DNA from: Thalassovita sp.
GTDB taxonomy: Bacteria; Pseudomonadota; Alphaproteobacteria; Rhodobacterales; Rhodobacteraceae
Length of the DNA stretch: 64,000 bases
Reading direction: 5' to 3'
NCBI RefSeq assembly: GCF_965218685.1
Contig: NZ_OZ244657.1
Location: 55,639 to 119,638 of the forward strand
A program made the position numbers and the translations under genes. A model generated the notes under the pieces. It made no database searches, was not told the DNA's origin, and saw nothing but the letters and a program-made list of their open reading frames with translations. Of this stretch, positions 4,715-56,237 are shown one piece after another (within the stretch, counting starts at the first letter, position 1; every line of letters begins with the position of its first letter).

Positions 4715-5140
4715 TCAGAAAACCTCCCAGATGCAGGAGCCGTTTTCGATGCGGAAAGCCTCGAAATACTGGACAACCGAAGGGGCAGTGGCGCCGAATT
4801 CCAGCGGCTTTTCGGCCATCGAGATGATGACTTGCGCCACATCCTGACCCGCGGCCACCAGGGTCGGCACAGCCACTTGGGCGCACAGAACGGGGAAGTC
4901 TTGCTCGACCTGGGCAAAGCCCACGCCCTGCGCCAGGGCCGGCGCAACAAAGCGGAAACGGGCCTGACCCGTTCCATCCGGCAGCGTATCGACAAAGTAT
5001 TCCTGAAGCGCCACAGACAAGCCCGAAGGCAAATCTTGATAGGAGGGCACGGCGGGGGCCTCCTCTTGCACGCCCGCCGTGGCCGCAGACGCCAGAAGGC
5101 ACCCTCCAAACGCGGCTAATATCTTGGTTGCGCTACTCAT
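4715..5140 (-). CDS. DUF6497-like exported protein
   Basis: Signal peptide, then LPSGLSVALQE...ARFRFVAP...DFPVLC...YFEAFRIENGSCIWEVF pattern recalled from Rhodobacteraceae proteins. Confidence 0.65.
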   Translation of the reverse strand: MSSATKILAAFGGCLLASAATAGVQEEAPAVPSYQDLPSGLSVALQEYFVDTLPDGTGQARFRFVAPALAQGVGFAQVEQDFPVLCAQVAVPTLVAAGQDVAQVIISMAEKPLEFGATAPSVVQYFEAFRIENGSCIWEVF

Positions 5141-5519
5141 AGCAGAACTTCCCGGCGTATGTCACCCAGCGAATAGCATTCTTCCGATCCGCCAGCATTT
5201 CGCGCAATTTATCTTCACTCTTTCCCTTGGGGAAAGGCATGCGATCCATACGCCCCCCCGCGGTAACGTGCAGCATGTCGCCGGCGTCCTCGACGCGCAC
5301 GACAGGGGAAAATCCACGCAGGTTTTGCAGCAAACGCCACATGTCCTGCCGGATCTGAGTAGCCAGACGGAGCTTGCCGCAACGCGGCAGCGTCACCTGC
5401 GCCGAGAAATCAAAGCGCACAGGCAGGGAACGCGCCAAGGTCAGCGCGCCCTCGTCCCGTTGGATATGCCACTTTGATCGGCTCACGTCCGTCCTTTCGA
5501 AACCTGTCCAAGGCCACAC
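5133..5519 (-). CDS. Hypothetical protein downstream of pccB (true start may be a GTG about 11 codons in)
   Basis: Co-oriented; stop overlaps the next gene by 8 nt; RLATQIRQDMWRLLQNLRGFSPVV motif. Confidence 0.6.
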   Translation of the reverse strand: MWPWTGFERTDVSRSKWHIQRDEGALTLARSLPVRFDFSAQVTLPRCGKLRLATQIRQDMWRLLQNLRGFSPVVRVEDAGDMLHVTAGGRMDRMPFPKGKSEDKLREMLADRKNAIRWVTYAGKFCYE

Positions 5520-5575: not shown

Positions 5576-7108
5576 TTACAGCGGGATGTTGTCGTGCTTC
5601 TTCCAGGGGTTCTGCAGCTTTTTGTTGCGCAGGCTGGCAAAGGCACGCGACACGCGGCGGCGGGTCGATTTGGGCTGGATCACCTCGTCGATGAAGCCAC
5701 GTTCAGCCGCCACAAACGGGTTGGCGAAACGGTCTTCGTAATCGGCGGTGTGTTGCGCGATCTTGTCAGCATCGCCCAGATCGGCACGGTGGATGATCTC
5801 GGTCGCGCCCTTGGCACCCATCACCGCAATTTCCGCAGTCGGCCAGGCATAGTTGAAATCACCGCGCAGGTGCTTGGAGGCCATCACGTCATAGGCGCCG
5901 CCATAAGCCTTGCGGGTGATGACGGTGACCTTGGGAACGGTGGCTTCGCCATAGGCGAACAGCAGTTTCGCACCGTGCTTGATCACGCCGCCATATTCCT
6001 GCGAGGTGCCGGGCAAGAAGCCAGGCACGTCCACCAGGGTCAGGATCGGAATTTCGAACGCATCACAGAAACGAACGAAACGCGCGGCCTTGCGGCTGCT
6101 GTCGATGTCCAGACAACCCGCCAGAACCATCGGCTGGTTGGCAACAACGCCCACGGTCTGACCTTCCATGCGGATGAAACCGGTGATGATGTTCTTGGCG
6201 AAGTCTTCCTGAATCTCATAGAAATCCGCCTCGTCCGCGATTTTCAGGATCAGTTCCTTCATATCGTAGGGGGTATTGGCGTTTTCAGGGATCAGGGTAT
6301 CCAGCGATTCCTCGACCCGATCGGGCTCGTCAAAGAACGGGCGCACGGGCGGTTTTTCGCGGTTGTTCAGCGGCAGGAAGTCGACCAGGCGGCGAACTTC
6401 GGCAAGCGCTTCGACGTCGTTTTCAAACGCGCCATCGGCGACCGAAGATTTCTTGGTGTGGGTGCTTGCGCCGCCCAGCTCCTCGGCGGTGACGACCTCG
6501 TTGGTGACGGTTTTCACAACGTCAGGGCCGGTCACGAACATGTACGAGCTGTCCTTCACCATGAAGATGAAGTCGGTCATCGCGGGCGAATACACGGCAC
6601 CACCGGCGCAGGGGCCCATGATCACCGAAATCTGCGGGATCACACCCGAGGCCATGATGTTGCGCTGGAAAATCTCGGCATAGCCAGCCAGCGCATCCAC
6701 GCCTTCCTGGATCCGGGCGCCGCCCGAATCGTTCAGGCCAATCACAGGCGCACCGTTCTGCATGGCCATGTCCATGATCTTGCAGATCTTCATCGCGTGG
6801 GTCGCAGACACCGAGCCCCCCAGAACCGTAAAGTCCTGGCTGAACACATAGACCATACGGCCGTTAATGGTGCCCCACCCGGTGATGACGCCATCACCTG
6901 CGGGTTTTTGATTTTCCATACCGAAATCAGTGCAGCGGTGCGACACAAACATGTCGAACTCTTCAAACGAATCTTCGTCCAGCAGCAGCTCGATCCGCTC
7001 GCGGGCGGTCAGCTTGCCCTTGGCGTGCTGGCTGTCGATACGTTTTTGACCCCCACCCAAACGGGCGTCGGCGCGGCGGCTTTCCAGTTCCTGGAGGATA
7101 TCTTTCAT
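5576..7108 (-). CDS. pccB: Propionyl-CoA carboxylase beta subunit (carboxyltransferase)
   Basis: [65 protein letters not shown]; start set at MKDIL after a GAAGGG RBS. Confidence 0.97.
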
Positions 7109-13541: not shown

Positions 13542-15002
13542 TCAGAAAGGCGCCTCAACAGCATCCATGCGCACGAAAACCGATTTCAGCTGCGAATAAT
13601 GCTCGATGGCCGCCTTGGAATTCTCACGCCCCACGCCCGAGGCTTTCACACCACCGAACGGCACCTCCACGGGCGCGTCATTGTAGGAATTGATGAAACA
13701 GGTGCCCGCCTGGAACCCCGCCACCATCCGATGAGCCCGCGCCAGATCACGGGTGAACACACCCGCCGCCAGCCCGAACTCGGTATCGTTGGCCCGCGCC
13801 AGAACCTCGTCTTCCTCCTCGAAGTCCAACACGCACATCACCGGGCCAAAAATCTCTTCGCGCGCGATCACCATGTTGTCGCGAACATCGGCAAACACCG
13901 TCGGTTCGATGAAAAACCCTTTATTGTCCAGTCTCTTACCACCACAGACCAGCCGAGCGCCCTCTTCCTGGCCCTTGGCGACATAGCGCTCCACGATGGC
14001 CAGCTGACCTTCGGACACCATGGGGCCAAAGCTGACATCCTCGTCCATCGGATCGCCGATTTTGGCATCCGCCAACCGTTCGGTCAGGCGCTTCAGGAAT
14101 GCCTCTTTGATGCCCTTTTGCACGAACACCCGCGTCCCGTTCGAGCACACCTGCCCCGAGGAATAGAAGTTCCCCAGGATCGCGCCACCCACAGCATCCT
14201 CGATATCCGCATCATCGAAAATCACCAGGGGGGACTTCCCGCCCAGCTCCATCGTGACGTGTTTCATCTGGCCCGCTGCGGCGGCATAAACCTTGCGCCC
14301 CGTGGGCACCGATCCGGTCAAGGACACCTTATCCACACGCGGGTCAGTCACCAGGTTCCCGCCGACTTCGCCCATGCCCTGGACAACGTTGAACAGCCCT
14401 GCAGGCAGGCCTGCCTCGTGCAGAATTTCAGCGACTTTCAGTGCACAAAGCGGCGTGGTTTCCGAGGGTTTGAACACCATCGCATTGCCGCAGGCCAGCG
14501 CCGGCGCGGCCTTCCAGCAGGCGATCTGCGTGGGATAGTTCCACGCGCCGATGCCGACACAAACCCCCAACGCCTCGCGCACCGTGTAGGCCCAGTTGCC
14601 ATCGCCCAGCGGGATATGCTCGCCGGTCAGGGACGCGGCCAGCCCCCCGAAATATTCCAACGCATCCGCGCCCGAGCTCGCGTCGGCCACCAGCGTTTCC
14701 TGTAGGGGTTTGCCGGTGTCATAGGTCTCTAGAATCGACAGGTCGCGATTGCGGTCGCGGATTATATCAGCCGCACGGCGCAGGATGCGGCCGCGCTCGG
14801 TGCCCGGCAACGCCGCCCATTCCGCCTGAGCCTCTCTGGCTGCGTTTAACGCCGCATCAATCACGGACGGAGTGGCAGCATGCACGGTCGCGATCACCTC
14901 GCCGGTGGCAGGATAGATCACCTCGATCGGCGTGCCCTCTGTGTCCTCAAGATAGGCGCCGTTCACGAAATGGCTGGCAGTGGGTTGAGTCGGATAGGTC
15001 AT
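13542..15002 (-). CDS. betB: Betaine aldehyde dehydrogenase
   Basis: [37 protein letters not shown] (catalytic Cys), EEIFGPV; start at MTYPTQP. Confidence 0.96.
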
Positions 15003-20159: not shown

Positions 20160-21061
20160 ACCTTGGTGGCTACCGCGACCGGGGTGCGGGTCCGGCGCTT
20201 CAGCACGGCCTCGCGCCAGGTGATGAACGTGACCGAGCTCAGGATCACCATGCCCCCCACCATGACCCACAGGTCCAGCCCCTCGTCGAACACGAAATAC
20301 CCAAGCAGGCTGGCCCAAAGCAGCTGCAAAAACGTCACCGGCTGGGTCACCGTCACCGGGGCCGCGGCAAAGGCCAGCGTCATGGTGTAATGCCCCGCCG
20401 TGGCCAGCAAGGCGACCCCGGTCAACAGCCCCAAAGCGCGCAAGTCGGGCGTTACCCAATTGGCGATCGCCACGGGCGCCAGCCCGATGGTCACGAAAAT
20501 CGACAGCATCCCCACGACAACGGCAGCATTGGTCTGATCGGTCAGGCGCTTGGCCAGCAGGTACGAGGCTCCGAATACAACGGCGGCCAGCAGCATGGCC
20601 AGGTGGCCATCCCCGACCTCGCGAAAACCGGGCCGTAGAATAATAAGAGCGCCGACCAGGGCCGTGATCACCGCCAAAACCCGCCTCAGTGCCAGTTTTT
20701 CACCCAAAAACAGGGCCGCGCCCAAGGTAACATAGATCGGAGAAAGATAGTTCAGCGCCGTTACGTCCGCGATCGGGATGCGCGCCATGGCATAGAACCA
20801 CAGCCCCACCCCGACCGAGTGCGCCAGTCCGCGCAGCGTGAACAGGCCCCATTGCCGTCGTGTCAGCCCCGCCCGCAGAATCGGCCGCATCATGGGCAAC
20901 ACAAAGATCATCCCAATCGCATAGCGCAAGAACGCAGCCTGCGTGGCCGGAATGACCGGACCCAGGGTTTTGACAAGGGCGGTGACTCCGACGAACAGGG
21001 CCCCGGTAACCAGCATCCACAGAATGCCGGCCACGGGTTGTTGAGGTCGCGAATTGTTCAT
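20156..21061 (-). CDS. DMT/EamA-family transporter
   Basis: Two EamA repeats, ten hydrophobic helices, LGEKL motif. Confidence 0.85.
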   Translation of the reverse strand: MNNSRPQQPVAGILWMLVTGALFVGVTALVKTLGPVIPATQAAFLRYAIGMIFVLPMMRPILRAGLTRRQWGLFTLRGLAHSVGVGLWFYAMARIPIADVTALNYLSPIYVTLGAALFLGEKLALRRVLAVITALVGALIILRPGFREVGDGHLAMLLAAVVFGASYLLAKRLTDQTNAAVVVGMLSIFVTIGLAPVAIANWVTPDLRALGLLTGVALLATAGHYTMTLAFAAAPVTVTQPVTFLQLLWASLLGYFVFDEGLDLWVMVGGMVILSSVTFITWREAVLKRRTRTPVAVATKV

Positions 21062-21098
21062 ATGTGTATTATCTGCCGGACCTAAACCAAGCGCAAGC

Positions 21099-21692
21099 TC
21101 AAACCAGCAGGCTCAGCGCGACGGACCACATGATGCATCCCACAAAGGCATCCAGAACCCGCCACGCGACGGGCCGTTCGAACAAGGGCGCAAGACGCCG
21201 CGCGCCATAGCCCAGCGAAAAGAAGAACGCAAAGCTGGCCGTTATGGCCCCCAGCGCGAAATGCAGCCTGTCAGGATATTGCGCCGCGACCGAACCCAAC
21301 AGCACCACCGTATCCAGATAGACATGCGGATTGGCCCATGTCAGCAGCAGGCAGGTGACCAGAACCCCGCCCAGACTTGCACGCCCCGATTGGGCCGCTT
21401 GCAGGTTCTCTCCGCCCTTCCAGGCCGCCCAAAAGGCTCGCGCGCCATAGATCAGCAGGAACGCCGCCCCACCCCAACGCATCACCGGCTCTAACCAGGG
21501 CAGCCGATTGACCAGCGCCCCGAATCCCGACACGCCCGCCGCTATCAGGATCGCATCCGACAGCGCACAGGTCAGGCAAACCGCAAAGACATGCTCGCGC
21601 CGGATGCCCTGCCGCAACACGAATGCATTCTGCGCACCGATAGCCATGATCAAAGACAGGCCCAGCCAAAATCCCGCGGTCAAAGACGTCAT
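21099..21692 (-). CDS. argO: LysE/ArgO-family amino acid exporter
   Basis: IMAIGAQNAFVLRQG and TWANPHVYLDTVVLLGS signatures. Confidence 0.88.
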   Translation of the reverse strand: MTSLTAGFWLGLSLIMAIGAQNAFVLRQGIRREHVFAVCLTCALSDAILIAAGVSGFGALVNRLPWLEPVMRWGGAAFLLIYGARAFWAAWKGGENLQAAQSGRASLGGVLVTCLLLTWANPHVYLDTVVLLGSVAAQYPDRLHFALGAITASFAFFFSLGYGARRLAPLFERPVAWRVLDAFVGCIMWSVALSLLV

Positions 21693-21760
21693 GAAACCTA
21701 CTTGCCTGTTGTTGTGTTGGGCAAGGAACCCAAGCCCCAGCCGCCCGACAGTAGCTCAAT

Positions 21761-21789
21761 TTCCGGCAATCCCAAGCCGGAAGTTTTTT
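21761..21789 (+). terminator. Intrinsic terminator on + strand with no annotated + gene upstream
   Basis: TTCCGGC-AATCCCAA-GCCGGAA followed by G and six T. Confidence 0.55.
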
Positions 21790-21948
21790 GTCCACAGGTT
21801 TTTCCACTGCATTTGGAAGATTTGTGGAGAAATCTCTTTGATGTCAGAAATGGGATAGTAATTGCTAAATATCGAGGCGTAAAAACGCTATAAAAGGCTG
21901 ATATATATAAGTGAAGCCTCACGCAAACCCGTTCGATCTTGTGGATAA
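21788..21948. promoter_or_regulatory. DnaA-box cluster flanking an AT-rich segment
   Basis: TTGTCCACA 21788-21796, TTTTCCACT 21800-21808, TGTGGAGAA 21823-21831 (one mismatch each) and perfect TGTGGATAA 21940-21948; AT-rich stretch about 21845-21912. Confidence 0.65.
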
Positions 21949-22001
21949 CCCTCCGCAGGTCGCGTCAATCCTGACGACTACGCGCGCCCAGGAATGAAAT
22001 A

Positions 22002-22024
22002 GGCCAGTCCGATCCGGACTGGCC
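22002..22024. terminator. Hairpin terminator downstream of yebC
   Basis: GGCCAGTCC-GATCC-GGACTGGCC with T-rich flanks on both strands. Confidence 0.7.
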
Positions 22025-22048
22025 CTTTCGCATAACTATGTGTGGGAA

Positions 22049-22789
22049 TCAAAGCTGATCCATCACCTCGTCCGAGGCTTCGAAGTTGGTGGTGACGCGC
22101 TGCACATCGTCGTCATCTTCCAAGGCATCAATCAGCTTCATCAGCTTTTGCATGTCTTCCAGACCCAGCTCGGTGGTGGTCTGCGGTTTCCACACCAGCT
22201 TGGTCGAGTCCGACTCGCCCAGCTCAGCCTCAAGCGCGTTCGACACCTCGTTCAGGTCCGTATCGGCACACCAGATGATGTGACCATCTTCGCTGCTTTC
22301 CACATCTTCGGCGCCAGCCTCGATTGCGGCCATCATCACGGTGTCCGCATCCCCAACGGATGCCGAGTATGTCACCTCGCCCTTGCGATCGAACATGAAG
22401 CCGACCGAACCGGTTTCACCCAGGTTGCCGCCGTTCTTGGTAAAGGTAGACCGCACGACCGAGGCGGTGCGGTTCCGGTTGTCAGTCATCGCCTCGACGA
22501 TCACGGCAACACCGTTGGGGCCATAGCCCTCGTAGCGGATTTCTTCGTAATCGTCGCCGTCGCCTGCGGTCGATTTCTTGATCGCGCGTTCAATCACGTC
22601 CTTGGGGACGGATTGCGACTTGGCCTCTTTCACGGCCAGGCGCAGGCGCGGGTTCTTGTCCGGATCAGGGTCGCCCATTTTCGCGGCGACGGTGATTTCC
22701 TTCGACAGTTTGGAAAACAGCTTCGAACGGGCGGCGTCTTGCCGGCCTTTACGGTGCTGGATGTTTGCCCATTTAGAGTGGCCGGCCAT
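22049..22789 (-). CDS. yebC: YebC/PmpR-family protein
   Basis: [38 protein letters not shown] signatures. Confidence 0.97.
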
Positions 22790-22910
22790 CGGTGCCTCCA
22801 TCATCTGAATACATTTCGTCGCGTCTCTATAAGTCAGGCGGGGGGCGGGCCGCAAGGAGGTTGCGTTCATCGCGGCCATGCGATTGTCTGGCAGGCAGGA
22901 GGCCCAGCCC

Positions 22911-24683
22911 ATGACCACAGACCAGATTATCCTGTTTTCCCTGTTCGGCGGTGTTTTCGCCATGCTTCTGTGGGGTCGGTTCCGCTATGACCTGGTGGCG
23001 TTTTCTGCGCTGATGGTGGGGGTGGTGCTGGGCGTGGTGCCGGTGAAAGACGCATTTTCTGGTTTCGGCCACTCGGCCACGCTGGTTGTGGCGCTGGTGC
23101 TGGTGGTCTCGGCCGGATTGGTACGATCAGGCGCGGTGTTCCTGATCACGCGCACCATGGTGGACAGCAGTCGCGCCCTGGGGGGGCATATCGCGCTGAT
23201 GGGCGGATTCGGCGGCATCCTGTCGGCCTTCATGAACAATGTCGCCGCGCTGGCGCTGCTGATGCCGGTGGATATTCAAACCGCGCATAAGGCGGGCCGC
23301 AGCCCGGGGCTGAGCCTGATGCCGCTGAGTTTCGCAACCATCCTTGGCGGCATGGCCACGCTGATCGGCACCCCGCCCAACATCATCATCGCGGCGATCC
23401 GCGAGGAATCCTTGGGCGAGCCGTTTTCCATGTTCGATTTCGCCCCCGTGGGCGGGCTGACGGCCATTGCGGGGCTGATTTTCGTCGCCCTGATCGGCTG
23501 GCGCCTGATCCCAAAACGCGAGGATGCCACCGCGCAAGTGGCTGAACTTGGAGACTATATTGCCGAGCTAACCGTACCGGAAGGCAACAAGCTGATCGGT
23601 CAACGTCTGGAAGAGCTGTACGAGGAGGCAGAAAAAGCGGACGTGGCCATTATCGGGCTGATCCGCGACGGAAAACGCCGCTATGGCCGGTCGCGATACA
23701 CCATGTTGCAGGCCGAGGACGCGCTGGTACTGGAGGCAAGTCCCGATGCGCTGGACGAATTCCGCTCGGCCCTGTCGCTGGCCTTTTCGGATGAAAAACG
23801 CGAAAGCCTTCTGAAGGCCGAGGGTGACGGGCTGGAGGTGATCGAGGCCGTGGTGCCCGTTGAATCCCGCCTGAATGGACGCACCGCACAAGCCGTGGGG
23901 CTGGCGTGGCGGCAACGCTCGGTCCTTCTGGGGATTTCACGACGGGGGAAATCCATCCGTCAACAAGTCCGTAAAACCGAGGTCGAGGCCGGGGATATCC
24001 TGTTGCTGCTGGTTCCGCGCGGCACCGGGGCTGACGTGATGGATTGGCTGGGCGTCCTGCCACTGGCAAGTCGCGGCCTGTCGGTGACCGAAAACTCGAA
24101 AACCTGGCTGGCCATTGGCCTGTTCGCAGCCGCCGTGCTGGCCGCCAGCCTGGGCCTTGTTTATCTGCCCGTGGCGCTGGGTCTGGTCGTTGTGGCCTAT
24201 GTGCTCAGCAAGATCCTGCCCCTGCAGGAGCTTTACGACCATATCGAATGGCCCGTGGTGGTCTTGCTGGGCTCGATGATCCCGCTGGGGGCGGCGCTGG
24301 AAACCTCGGGCGGGACCGAGCTGATCGCCAGCAGCTTGGTGAACCTGACCCAAGGCTGGCCCGCCTGGGCCATTCTTACAGTTCTGATGGTGGTGACGAT
24401 GACCCTGTCAGACGTATTGAACAATACCGCCACGGCCATTGTCGCGGCCCCCATCGGCATCCAGATGGCGCAGCAACTGGGTGTGAATCCCGACCCGTTC
24501 CTGATGGCCGTTGCAATCGCTGCCTCGGCCGCCTTTCTGACGCCCATCGGGCACAAGAACAACACGCTGGTGCTGGGCCCTGGTGGGTATCACTTTGGTG
24601 ACTACTGGCGCATGGGTCTGCCGCTTGAAATTCTGGTCGTTAGTGTCTCGATCCCATTGATCCTGATCTTCTGGCCGCTGTAA
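22911..24683 (+). CDS. SLC13-family permease with TrkA-C domains (copy 1)
   Basis: [22 protein letters not shown], two central TrkA-C repeats, [14 protein letters not shown]...GGYHFGDY. Confidence 0.9.
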
Positions 24684-55331: not shown

Positions 55332-56237
55332 TTACTGGCGCTGCAGCTTTACCGGTTCAGTACGGGCCAGCCGTGTGAAATGCGAGAAATACGGGCGCGT
55401 CGCATCATCGCTGCGAACGGCCGCATAAAGCCGCCGGTTCAGGCCGGCTTTCGTGATCGGGCGCGTGACATAGTCCGAGTTATATTTGACCTCGCGCACA
55501 ACCCAGTCCGGCAGAACGGCGACACCCCGGTTCGAGGCAACCAGCAACAGCATCATCGGCGTCAGCTCGACGCGGCGGATCGCGGCGGGCTCGACCCCGG
55601 CCGGTTCCAAAAGCAGTTTGAAGATGTCCAGGCGCGAGCGGTCCACCGGGTAGGCAAAAAGCGTCTCCCCTCGGAAATCCTCGGCCTCGACATAGGGTTG
55701 TTGCGCCAGCGGATGCTGGGCCGAAGCGACGAAGACAGGGGAATAGTCAAACAGCGGCAGGAATTCGACACCGGGGATGTCCTCGGGGTCGGACGAGATA
55801 ACCAGGTCGACCTCTTCCTTGACCAGCGCGGGCAGCGCGTCGAAGGCCAGGTTGGGACGGATGTCGATATCCACGTCAGGCCATGCCTTGCGAAACTGCT
55901 CAAGCACGGGGAACAGCCATTCAAAACAAGCGTGACATTCGATTGCGATATGCAACCGGCCCGTCTTGCCCGAGATGATACCGTTGAACTCTTCTTCAAG
56001 CCGCGCAAGTTCGGGCAGGATATTGTCAGCAGCGCGCAGCAGACGCATCCCTGCAGCGGACAGTTTCAGCGGCTTCGAGCGGCGCACGAACAGTTCGACC
56101 CCGGTCTGATCCTCCAGATGCTTGATCTGGTGGGACAAAGCCGACTGGGTAATGTTCAGCTGATCAGCGGCGCGGGCCATACCGCCGGCCTCGTGGATGG
56201 CTTTAACAGTGCGCAGATGGCGGATTTCGATATGCAT
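55332..56237 (-). CDS. metR: LysR regulator MetR
   Basis: IEIRHL..V, TQSALSHQIK, IECHACFEWL; divergent from metF. Confidence 0.92.
   Translation of the reverse strand: MHIEIRHLRTVKAIHEAGGMARAADQLNITQSALSHQIKHLEDQTGVELFVRRSKPLKLSAAGMRLLRAADNILPELARLEEEFNGIISGKTGRLHIAIECHACFEWLFPVLEQFRKAWPDVDIDIRPNLAFDALPALVKEEVDLVISSDPEDIPGVEFLPLFDYSPVFVASAQHPLAQQPYVEAEDFRGETLFAYPVDRSRLDIFKLLLEPAGVEPAAIRRVELTPMMLLLVASNRGVAVLPDWVVREVKYNSDYVTRPITKAGLNRRLYAAVRSDDATRPYFSHFTRLARTEPVKLQRQ

Follow-up and report, generated by a model that had tools for sequence, protein, structure and literature searches.

Sites outside the origin that control the bacterial initiator have been worked out mainly in E. coli, as datA, DARS1 and DARS2, with simpler cases in Bacillus and Streptomyces. 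Among these, DARS2 needs both IHF and Fis, and the DBCs of Bacillus subtilis, like the Streptomyces cluster, are thought to lower initiation by way of DnaA binding. Alphaproteobacteria, as far as is known, depend on HdaA, CtrA and proteolysis. In the DBCs and the Streptomyces cluster, consensus DnaA boxes are reportedly packed closely together away from oriC, in part at gene ends, as is said to have been described in Ishikawa 2007, Okumura 2012 and Smulczyk-Krawczyszyn 2006. In E. coli, datA is active only with an IHF site separating boxes 2 and 3, and its effect depends on chromosomal position (PMC10380432). For the Rhodobacteraceae, an origin survey revealed that Ori-Finder often proposes ambiguous alternative origins (PMC6699656). 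Our search of the literature found no DnaA site of this kind described for Rhodobacterales or Alphaproteobacteria.

We have analyzed a window of 64,000 nucleotides, starting at position 55,639 of a Thalassovita sp. genome that consists of a single contig of 3,380,254 bp. An initial annotation of this window, made from the letters alone, had drawn attention to a group of DnaA boxes next to yebC, which it read either as an undescribed locus of the datA, DARS or Bacillus kind or as a relocated or secondary origin. The first of these proposals seems to hold insofar as the cluster is non-origin and mid-replichore, with a position that is kept throughout the genus and is mostly between convergent genes. 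Based on comparison of sequences, we surmise that the spacer harboring these boxes is a selected non-origin DnaA-binding control site, acting by titration or in the manner of datA/DARS, and would assign this reading a probability of roughly 0.6.

Four DnaA boxes between an exporter gene and yebC

The boxes of the spacer (Table 1) have the arrangement > 3 bp > 14 bp < 108 bp <, and the placing of three near-consensus boxes within 44 bp, followed by a perfect one, was found to be exact. From box 3 to box 4, the non-box motif listed in Table 1 is the sole conserved block in the alignment of species sharing this arrangement (type A, see below). Terminators had been proposed on both sides of the spacer. 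The right hairpin, belonging to yebC, is indeed conserved, whereas the left one resembles a terminator on a single strand and has no gene preceding it on that strand; it is possibly the leftover terminator of a lost argP gene.

Table 1. Features of the exporter gene–yebC spacer, its flanks and related box sites (window positions unless a contig or locus is named)
Feature	Position	Strand	Remarks
LysE/ArgO-type exporter gene	21099..21692	-	Pfam LysE 6e-40; start codon 96 bp from box 1
Spacer, exporter gene–yebC	21693-22048		356 bp; carries four DnaA boxes
Hairpin and T-run	21758..21785	+	directly left of box 1; terminator-like on + strand only
DnaA box 1, TTGTCCACA	21788-21796	+	1 mismatch
DnaA box 2, TTTTCCACT	21800-21808	+	2 mismatches; tandem to box 1, 3-bp gap
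DnaA box 3, TTCTCCACA	21823-21831	-	1 mismatch; opposes boxes 1-2, 14-bp gap
Weak look-alike of sigma-54-type element, TGGGATAGTAATTGCT	21851-21866		seen by eye
Non-box motif AAAAGGCTGATATATATAAGTG (in relatives AAAGGACTCATTTTCGATAGCC)	21892..21913		type-A alignment
DnaA box 4, TTATCCACA	21940-21948	-	perfect; 108 bp beyond box 3
yebC intrinsic terminator hairpin	22001..22025	-	conserved genus-wide in alignments
yebC (TACO1/YebC family)	22049..22789	-	Pfam and translation; stop codon upstream of cluster
Lone perfect DnaA box, TTATCCACA	14329-14337	+	7.5 kb off the cluster
Boxes of G015	C6:38500-46000 (L109), 2319-2420 and 5025-5156		two spacers
Boxes of G005	L111, 3302 and 5818-5850		matching two spacers, 2 + 1

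For the exporter gene, the top NCBIfam models were those of the L-lysine exporter and ArgO, each of which scored under its own cut-off. A regulator of the ArgP/LysG family is normally paired with a LysE/ArgO-type exporter gene; a tblastn search of this genome for argP returned no match at 1e-10, and the exporter gene is therefore without its usual activator.

A local transcriptional role is the main rival to a control site because the boxes of the window are positioned 96-260 bp upstream of the exporter gene. On this view, the cluster would be a DnaA-dependent operator of a neighboring transcript, whether the exporter gene, a small RNA from the spacer or, in the larger version of the cluster, argP or its antisense. 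DnaA does act as a transcription factor in Alphaproteobacteria, as exemplified by gcrA, ftsZ and podJ of Caulobacter (PMC8203912), and boxes are located upstream of the exporter gene in all 6 type-A species. However, scans of the sequence gave no sign of a structured RNA, a small ORF or a promoter: 1) Rfam models over 20500-23000 gave nothing matching at E up to 1; 2) a sigma-70 promoter scan of 21000-22800 found none; 3) six-frame ORFs of 17 spacers, compared all against all, included no conserved small ORF, the matches being solely antisense to the end of yebC or within close species pairs. We return to this rival below, together with the arrangement in other species.

DnaA boxes number 15 in this genome if they have to be perfect and 401 if up to 1 mismatch is allowed. 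At least 3 of the latter occur together in just two stretches of 200 bp, at genome 77,426 and 897,810, compared with a chance expectation of ~0.1 such clusters per genome (Poisson, from box density). The share of perfect boxes that falls into the cluster was 5/27 in the congener G001, 5/24 in G005 and 7/27 in G016. Separately, two perfect boxes face each other 35 bp apart at genome 1,835,812-1,835,864, in the spacer between convergent trpB and a 155-aa ORF upstream of pth, making this a second non-promoter DnaA-box site of this genome.

The cluster in relation to the replication origin

Cumulative GC skew was lowest at 924,657 and peaked at 2,564,066. The most strand-biased octamer, GGGCAGGG, with 564 copies of which 91.5% are on the leading strand over the whole genome, behaves like a KOPS/FtsK-orienting motif and is a sharper form of the GGGNAGGG singled out in the initial annotation; it switches strand at 922.9-927.2 kb. 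At genome 11-168 kb, on both sides of the cluster (77.4 kb), 27 of 27 copies are on the - strand, in keeping with the earlier statement that KOPS-type octamers point the same way on either side, and the skew is negative both left and right of the cluster with no change of sign. Since skew and GGGCAGGG polarity are the same on both sides, the yebC cluster is not an origin, and the view that it is situated away from oriC was correct. Its flanks, the exporter gene and yebC, are likewise not of origin type.

Placing the origin by GC skew, a check that the initial annotation had recommended, led elsewhere, to the neighborhood of rho|maf (mnmE-rho | maf-aroE). Situated at genome 897.5-898.0 kb, the spacer between rho and maf harbors four boxes, each deviating from the consensus by no more than 1 mismatch, in ~200 bp. 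It also features TTAAGCACTGATTAA, a perfect CtrA box, and with 67% AT over 200 bp the top AT content of the scanned 890-940 kb, and is likely oriC. This putative oriC is ~25 kb left of the skew minimum and of the GGGCAGGG switch; five successive GGGCAGGG copies at 900-923 kb point in the 'wrong' direction, which suggests an inversion next to the origin, and a small inversion is one possible reason for the offset. The dnaA gene is at 1.035 Mb. From the yebC cluster to oriC there are 820 kb, corresponding to 24% of the genome, or about half-way along the replichore, and among the four closed genomes compared, the distance from the cluster to the rho-linked oriC, as a percentage of genome length, was 24.3 here, 23.9 in G001, 23.5 in G005 and 29.4 in G003.

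A secondary, dormant or relic origin might be suspected from the several boxes adjoining an AT-rich stretch in this genome, as well as from the cluster of sister species, which has more consensus boxes than oriC and, with more perfect boxes than the origin itself, would mislead predictors that count boxes. We regard such an origin, including the relocated one of the initial annotation, as very improbable. Neither GC skew nor GGGCAGGG polarity changes at the cluster, here or in G001, and the true origin is 820 kb away. An AT-rich core does exist in this genome, but orthologous spacers have not conserved it (that of G011 is GC-rich there). The CtrA site TTAA-N7-TTAA is absent from all 17 spacers, unlike the rho|maf spacer which has one, and half of the larger cluster is inside coding sequence. 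The idea that the larger cluster serves as the origin of the sister species was rejected as well, with oriC being ~1 Mb off as judged by the position of rho in G001, G003 and G005 and by GGGCAGGGT polarity in G001; the latter puts the origin of G001 near 1.0-1.24 Mb, with no lasting switch at the cluster.

Conservation, larger forms and a second box locus in the genus

Comparison of the spacer by blastn with 40 relatives revealed no conservation, and the same was true of 17 congeners. When DNA downstream of yebC was fetched from congeners and aligned by synteny (16 usable species, one genome per species), the boxes were recognizable amid spacer that could not otherwise be aligned. Conservation next to yebC, another point that the initial annotation had wished to see examined, was found in 15 of 16 species; with 1 mismatch tolerated, these carry 1-5 boxes, most of them perfect, within ~500 bp of the yebC stop, and at least 2 boxes in 14 species.

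Six species, including this one (the others being G011, G006, G003, G010 and G014), have the order exporter gene, four boxes, yebC, which we call type A. Start-to-start spacings are 12, 35-36 and 106-117 bp, the last being the distance from box 3 to box 4 in those type-A species where both are within one mismatch, and the module > 3 > 14/15 < is present in the window, G011, G003 and G014. Box 1 is the best conserved of the four, reading TTATCCACA or TTATCCCCA, and box 2 is weak in all of these species, retaining CCAC/CAC only. Among alignment columns, 58% of those in boxes vs. 13% of those in the rest of the spacer were conserved in at least 5 of the 6 sequences (Fisher p = 1e-8). A scan for IHF sites with WATCAANNNNTTR, a consensus assumed for this lineage, gave single non-conserved matches in 2 of 6 type-A spacers with 1 mismatch allowed. 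The pattern of conservation indicates that the boxes are under selection, independent of the flanking genes.

The boxes of the window are weaker than those in any relative, argP has been lost, and the 15 perfect boxes of this genome are the fewest among the genomes counted (tied with G003), all of which would be in line with a decaying and now neutral remnant of a larger ancestral cluster, or with a chance grouping. However, the four-box layout with its spacing has been kept in six species despite near-complete divergence of the spacer, and the low chance expectation given above also speaks against it; we find a neutral remnant quite improbable and continue with boxes maintained by selection.

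In ten other species (type B), the gene of an ArgP/LysG-family regulator (NCBIfam 349 bits vs. a cut-off of 197) is inserted in the order between exporter gene and cluster, convergent with yebC. Here the cluster comprises 4-12 boxes over ~400-750 bp, extending across the spacer between argP and yebC and into the 3' half of the former, with several boxes within the gene; the boxes, up to 12 of them, are phased at 11-12 bp start to start. Judging from these two forms, the window most likely contains a reduced four-box form that remained after argP loss.

To appreciate the boxes inside argP, it is useful to look at eight type-B genes with pairwise protein identity of 57-92%. Among them, invariance is limited to 10% of third codon positions, and the longest invariant nucleotide run is 10 nt, TTATCCACAG being one of two such runs. 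At this run all eight genes encode V/L/I-I-H-R/S; the argP orthologues of other genera have unrelated residues at the same position, e.g. VTPT, CKLT, RRLH and PGLA. A second argP box, GTGGATAAG (V-D-K), is found in most of five species, and three other species have TTATCCACA in its place, in the opposite orientation and a few codons away. These data suggest that the DNA word itself has been selected for, to the detriment of the ArgP protein sequence. If so, the boxes inside argP would be a case of selection for DNA sites overriding that for protein sequence.

Outside the genus, none of 79 loci from other Rhodobacterales genera had at least 2 boxes within 700 bp downstream of yebC, and the yebC / argP / exporter synteny is widespread among those genera. 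Of 300 other genera of the family, each represented by one genome, no more than 7 have a tandem pair of perfect boxes, with every pair isolated, which rules out dense box arrays as a common family trait. As other genera are without boxes at yebC or dense arrays, the distribution indicates that the array arose within this genus, and as the element is confined to one genus, Rhodobacterales in general do not require it.

G015, the only species lacking boxes next to yebC, has 4 + 6 perfect boxes in two spacers of another locus (priA-fsa | orf-xerC-membrane protein | orf-ileS), amounting to 10 of its 29 perfect boxes. G005 has boxes at matching spacers (Table 1), and no boxes were present in the spacers of this locus in our genome. 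The priA-xerC-ileS locus is thus a second, variable DnaA-box locus of the genus.

These arrangements bear on the operator reading introduced above. In its favor, E. coli ArgP/IciA has been tied to the control of dnaA and nrd (PMC8203912), making a link between DnaA and argP conceivable, and inspection by eye picked out sigma-54-type -24/-12 elements (TGGCAT-N5-TTGCA) after the last box, toward yebC, in G007 (TGGCATAGCACTTGCA) and G016 (TGGCACGGGACCTGCA). Against it are the following: 1) in ten species the cluster is located between convergent 3' ends, at least 500 bp from the exporter promoter, and the type-B cluster is not in a promoter because it is between convergent argP and yebC; 2) box 1 is 87 to at least 190 bp away from the start codon of the exporter gene, depending on the species, with box-to-box distances fixed; 3) the dense cluster of G015 is at an unrelated locus; 4) 12 boxes are far above the usual gene operator. 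The boxes do not occupy a fixed place at the promoter of a conserved gene, as would be seen with a DnaA-regulated promoter. An operator of a single gene is hard to reconcile with conservation independent of the flanks, the convergent setting, up to 12 boxes, intrusion into coding sequence and rebuilding in G015. We therefore hold a local transcriptional role to be unlikely, albeit deserving of serious attention.

A structural role would also have some appeal, with the cluster being a roadblock to transcription or replication between convergent genes, or a landmark of the chromosome arm. The site is between convergent genes in most species, and both box loci known from the genus map, in the coordinates of this genome, to opposite arms, 820 kb (yebC) and 814-816 kb (priA-xerC) from oriC. 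We take this rough symmetry, the mirroring of the two loci about oriC, as a lead rather than a result. The symmetry is looser in G005 (1,084 vs. about 1,214 kb from oriC for the two loci), the yebC terminator is already strong, and we know of no precedent for DnaA boxes acting as a roadblock or landmark; a structural role is improbable in our estimation.

A candidate DnaA control site and the known systems

Returning to the spacer as a non-origin control site, we surmise that several DnaA molecules would bind the phased boxes cooperatively, two in tandem across the 3-bp gap, a third opposite these and a fourth farther away. The locus may then act on the initiator, either by keeping DnaA from oriC (titration) or, like datA and DARS of E. 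coli, by altering its nucleotide state. With its place about halfway along the replichore, the locus would be duplicated in mid S-phase. We infer, from the features of the sequence, that DnaA binds here and that the effect is on initiation rather than on the neighboring genes. Among the points against this reading are the confinement to one genus, the lack of a conserved IHF consensus, the facing gap discussed below and the quality of the boxes in the window, with one perfect, two having 1 mismatch and one having 2.

In a bolder and more doubtful version, which we put forward tentatively, the genus has evolved its own mid-replichore locus akin to datA/DARS2, whose array has rewritten part of argP, can be rebuilt elsewhere and sets timing through its own copying. 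If true, Alphaproteobacteria would thereby have their first known cis-acting DnaA control site. The genus would also provide a natural series of dose and position, from 0 boxes at yebC in G015 and 4 in this strain up to 12.

Compared with this genome's own oriC, the cluster is alike in having four DnaA boxes within ~200 bp, but the 67% AT, the CtrA box, the conserved mnmE-rho | maf-aroE neighborhood and the skew and GGGCAGGG switch within 25 kb pertain to oriC only. It resembles datA as an intergenic cluster of (here putatively) high-affinity boxes downstream of a gene and away from oriC, and differs from it in that datA is near oriC, whereas the present cluster has no conserved IHF consensus and no homology to datA.

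The resemblance to DARS1 and DARS2 is that of a non-origin, non-coding site with a three-box core, and DARS2 is mid-replichore as is the cluster here. As read from MG1655, the E. coli DARS1 core consists of TTATCCACT, 5 bp, TGTGGATAA, 3 bp and TGTGTATTA, i.e. > 5 < 3 <, and the type-A module, viewed from the other strand, matches it in order, orientation and the 3-bp tandem gap. The exact DARS1 geometry is not reproduced, as the facing boxes are 14-15 bp apart (in G005, 6 bp), against 5 bp in DARS1, and the module is at most a possible DARS. Unlike the DARS core, the larger versions in the genus have many more boxes, and no conserved IHF consensus site was found in the spacers, in distinction to DARS1/DARS2.

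The closest analogy is with the generic kind of DnaA-box cluster that Bacillus and Streptomyces have away from the origin. Those clusters belong to another phylum, share no sequence homology with ours and are near the origin, whereas the present one is mid-replichore, confined to one genus, made up of 4-12 boxes and partly in coding sequence with a changed protein. As befits a generic titration-type site such as the DBCs of B. subtilis, it is the boxes themselves that are conserved here and not the surrounding sequence. What the cluster has in common with both the DBCs and the Streptomyces cluster is an array of dense DnaA boxes outside oriC, far above chance.
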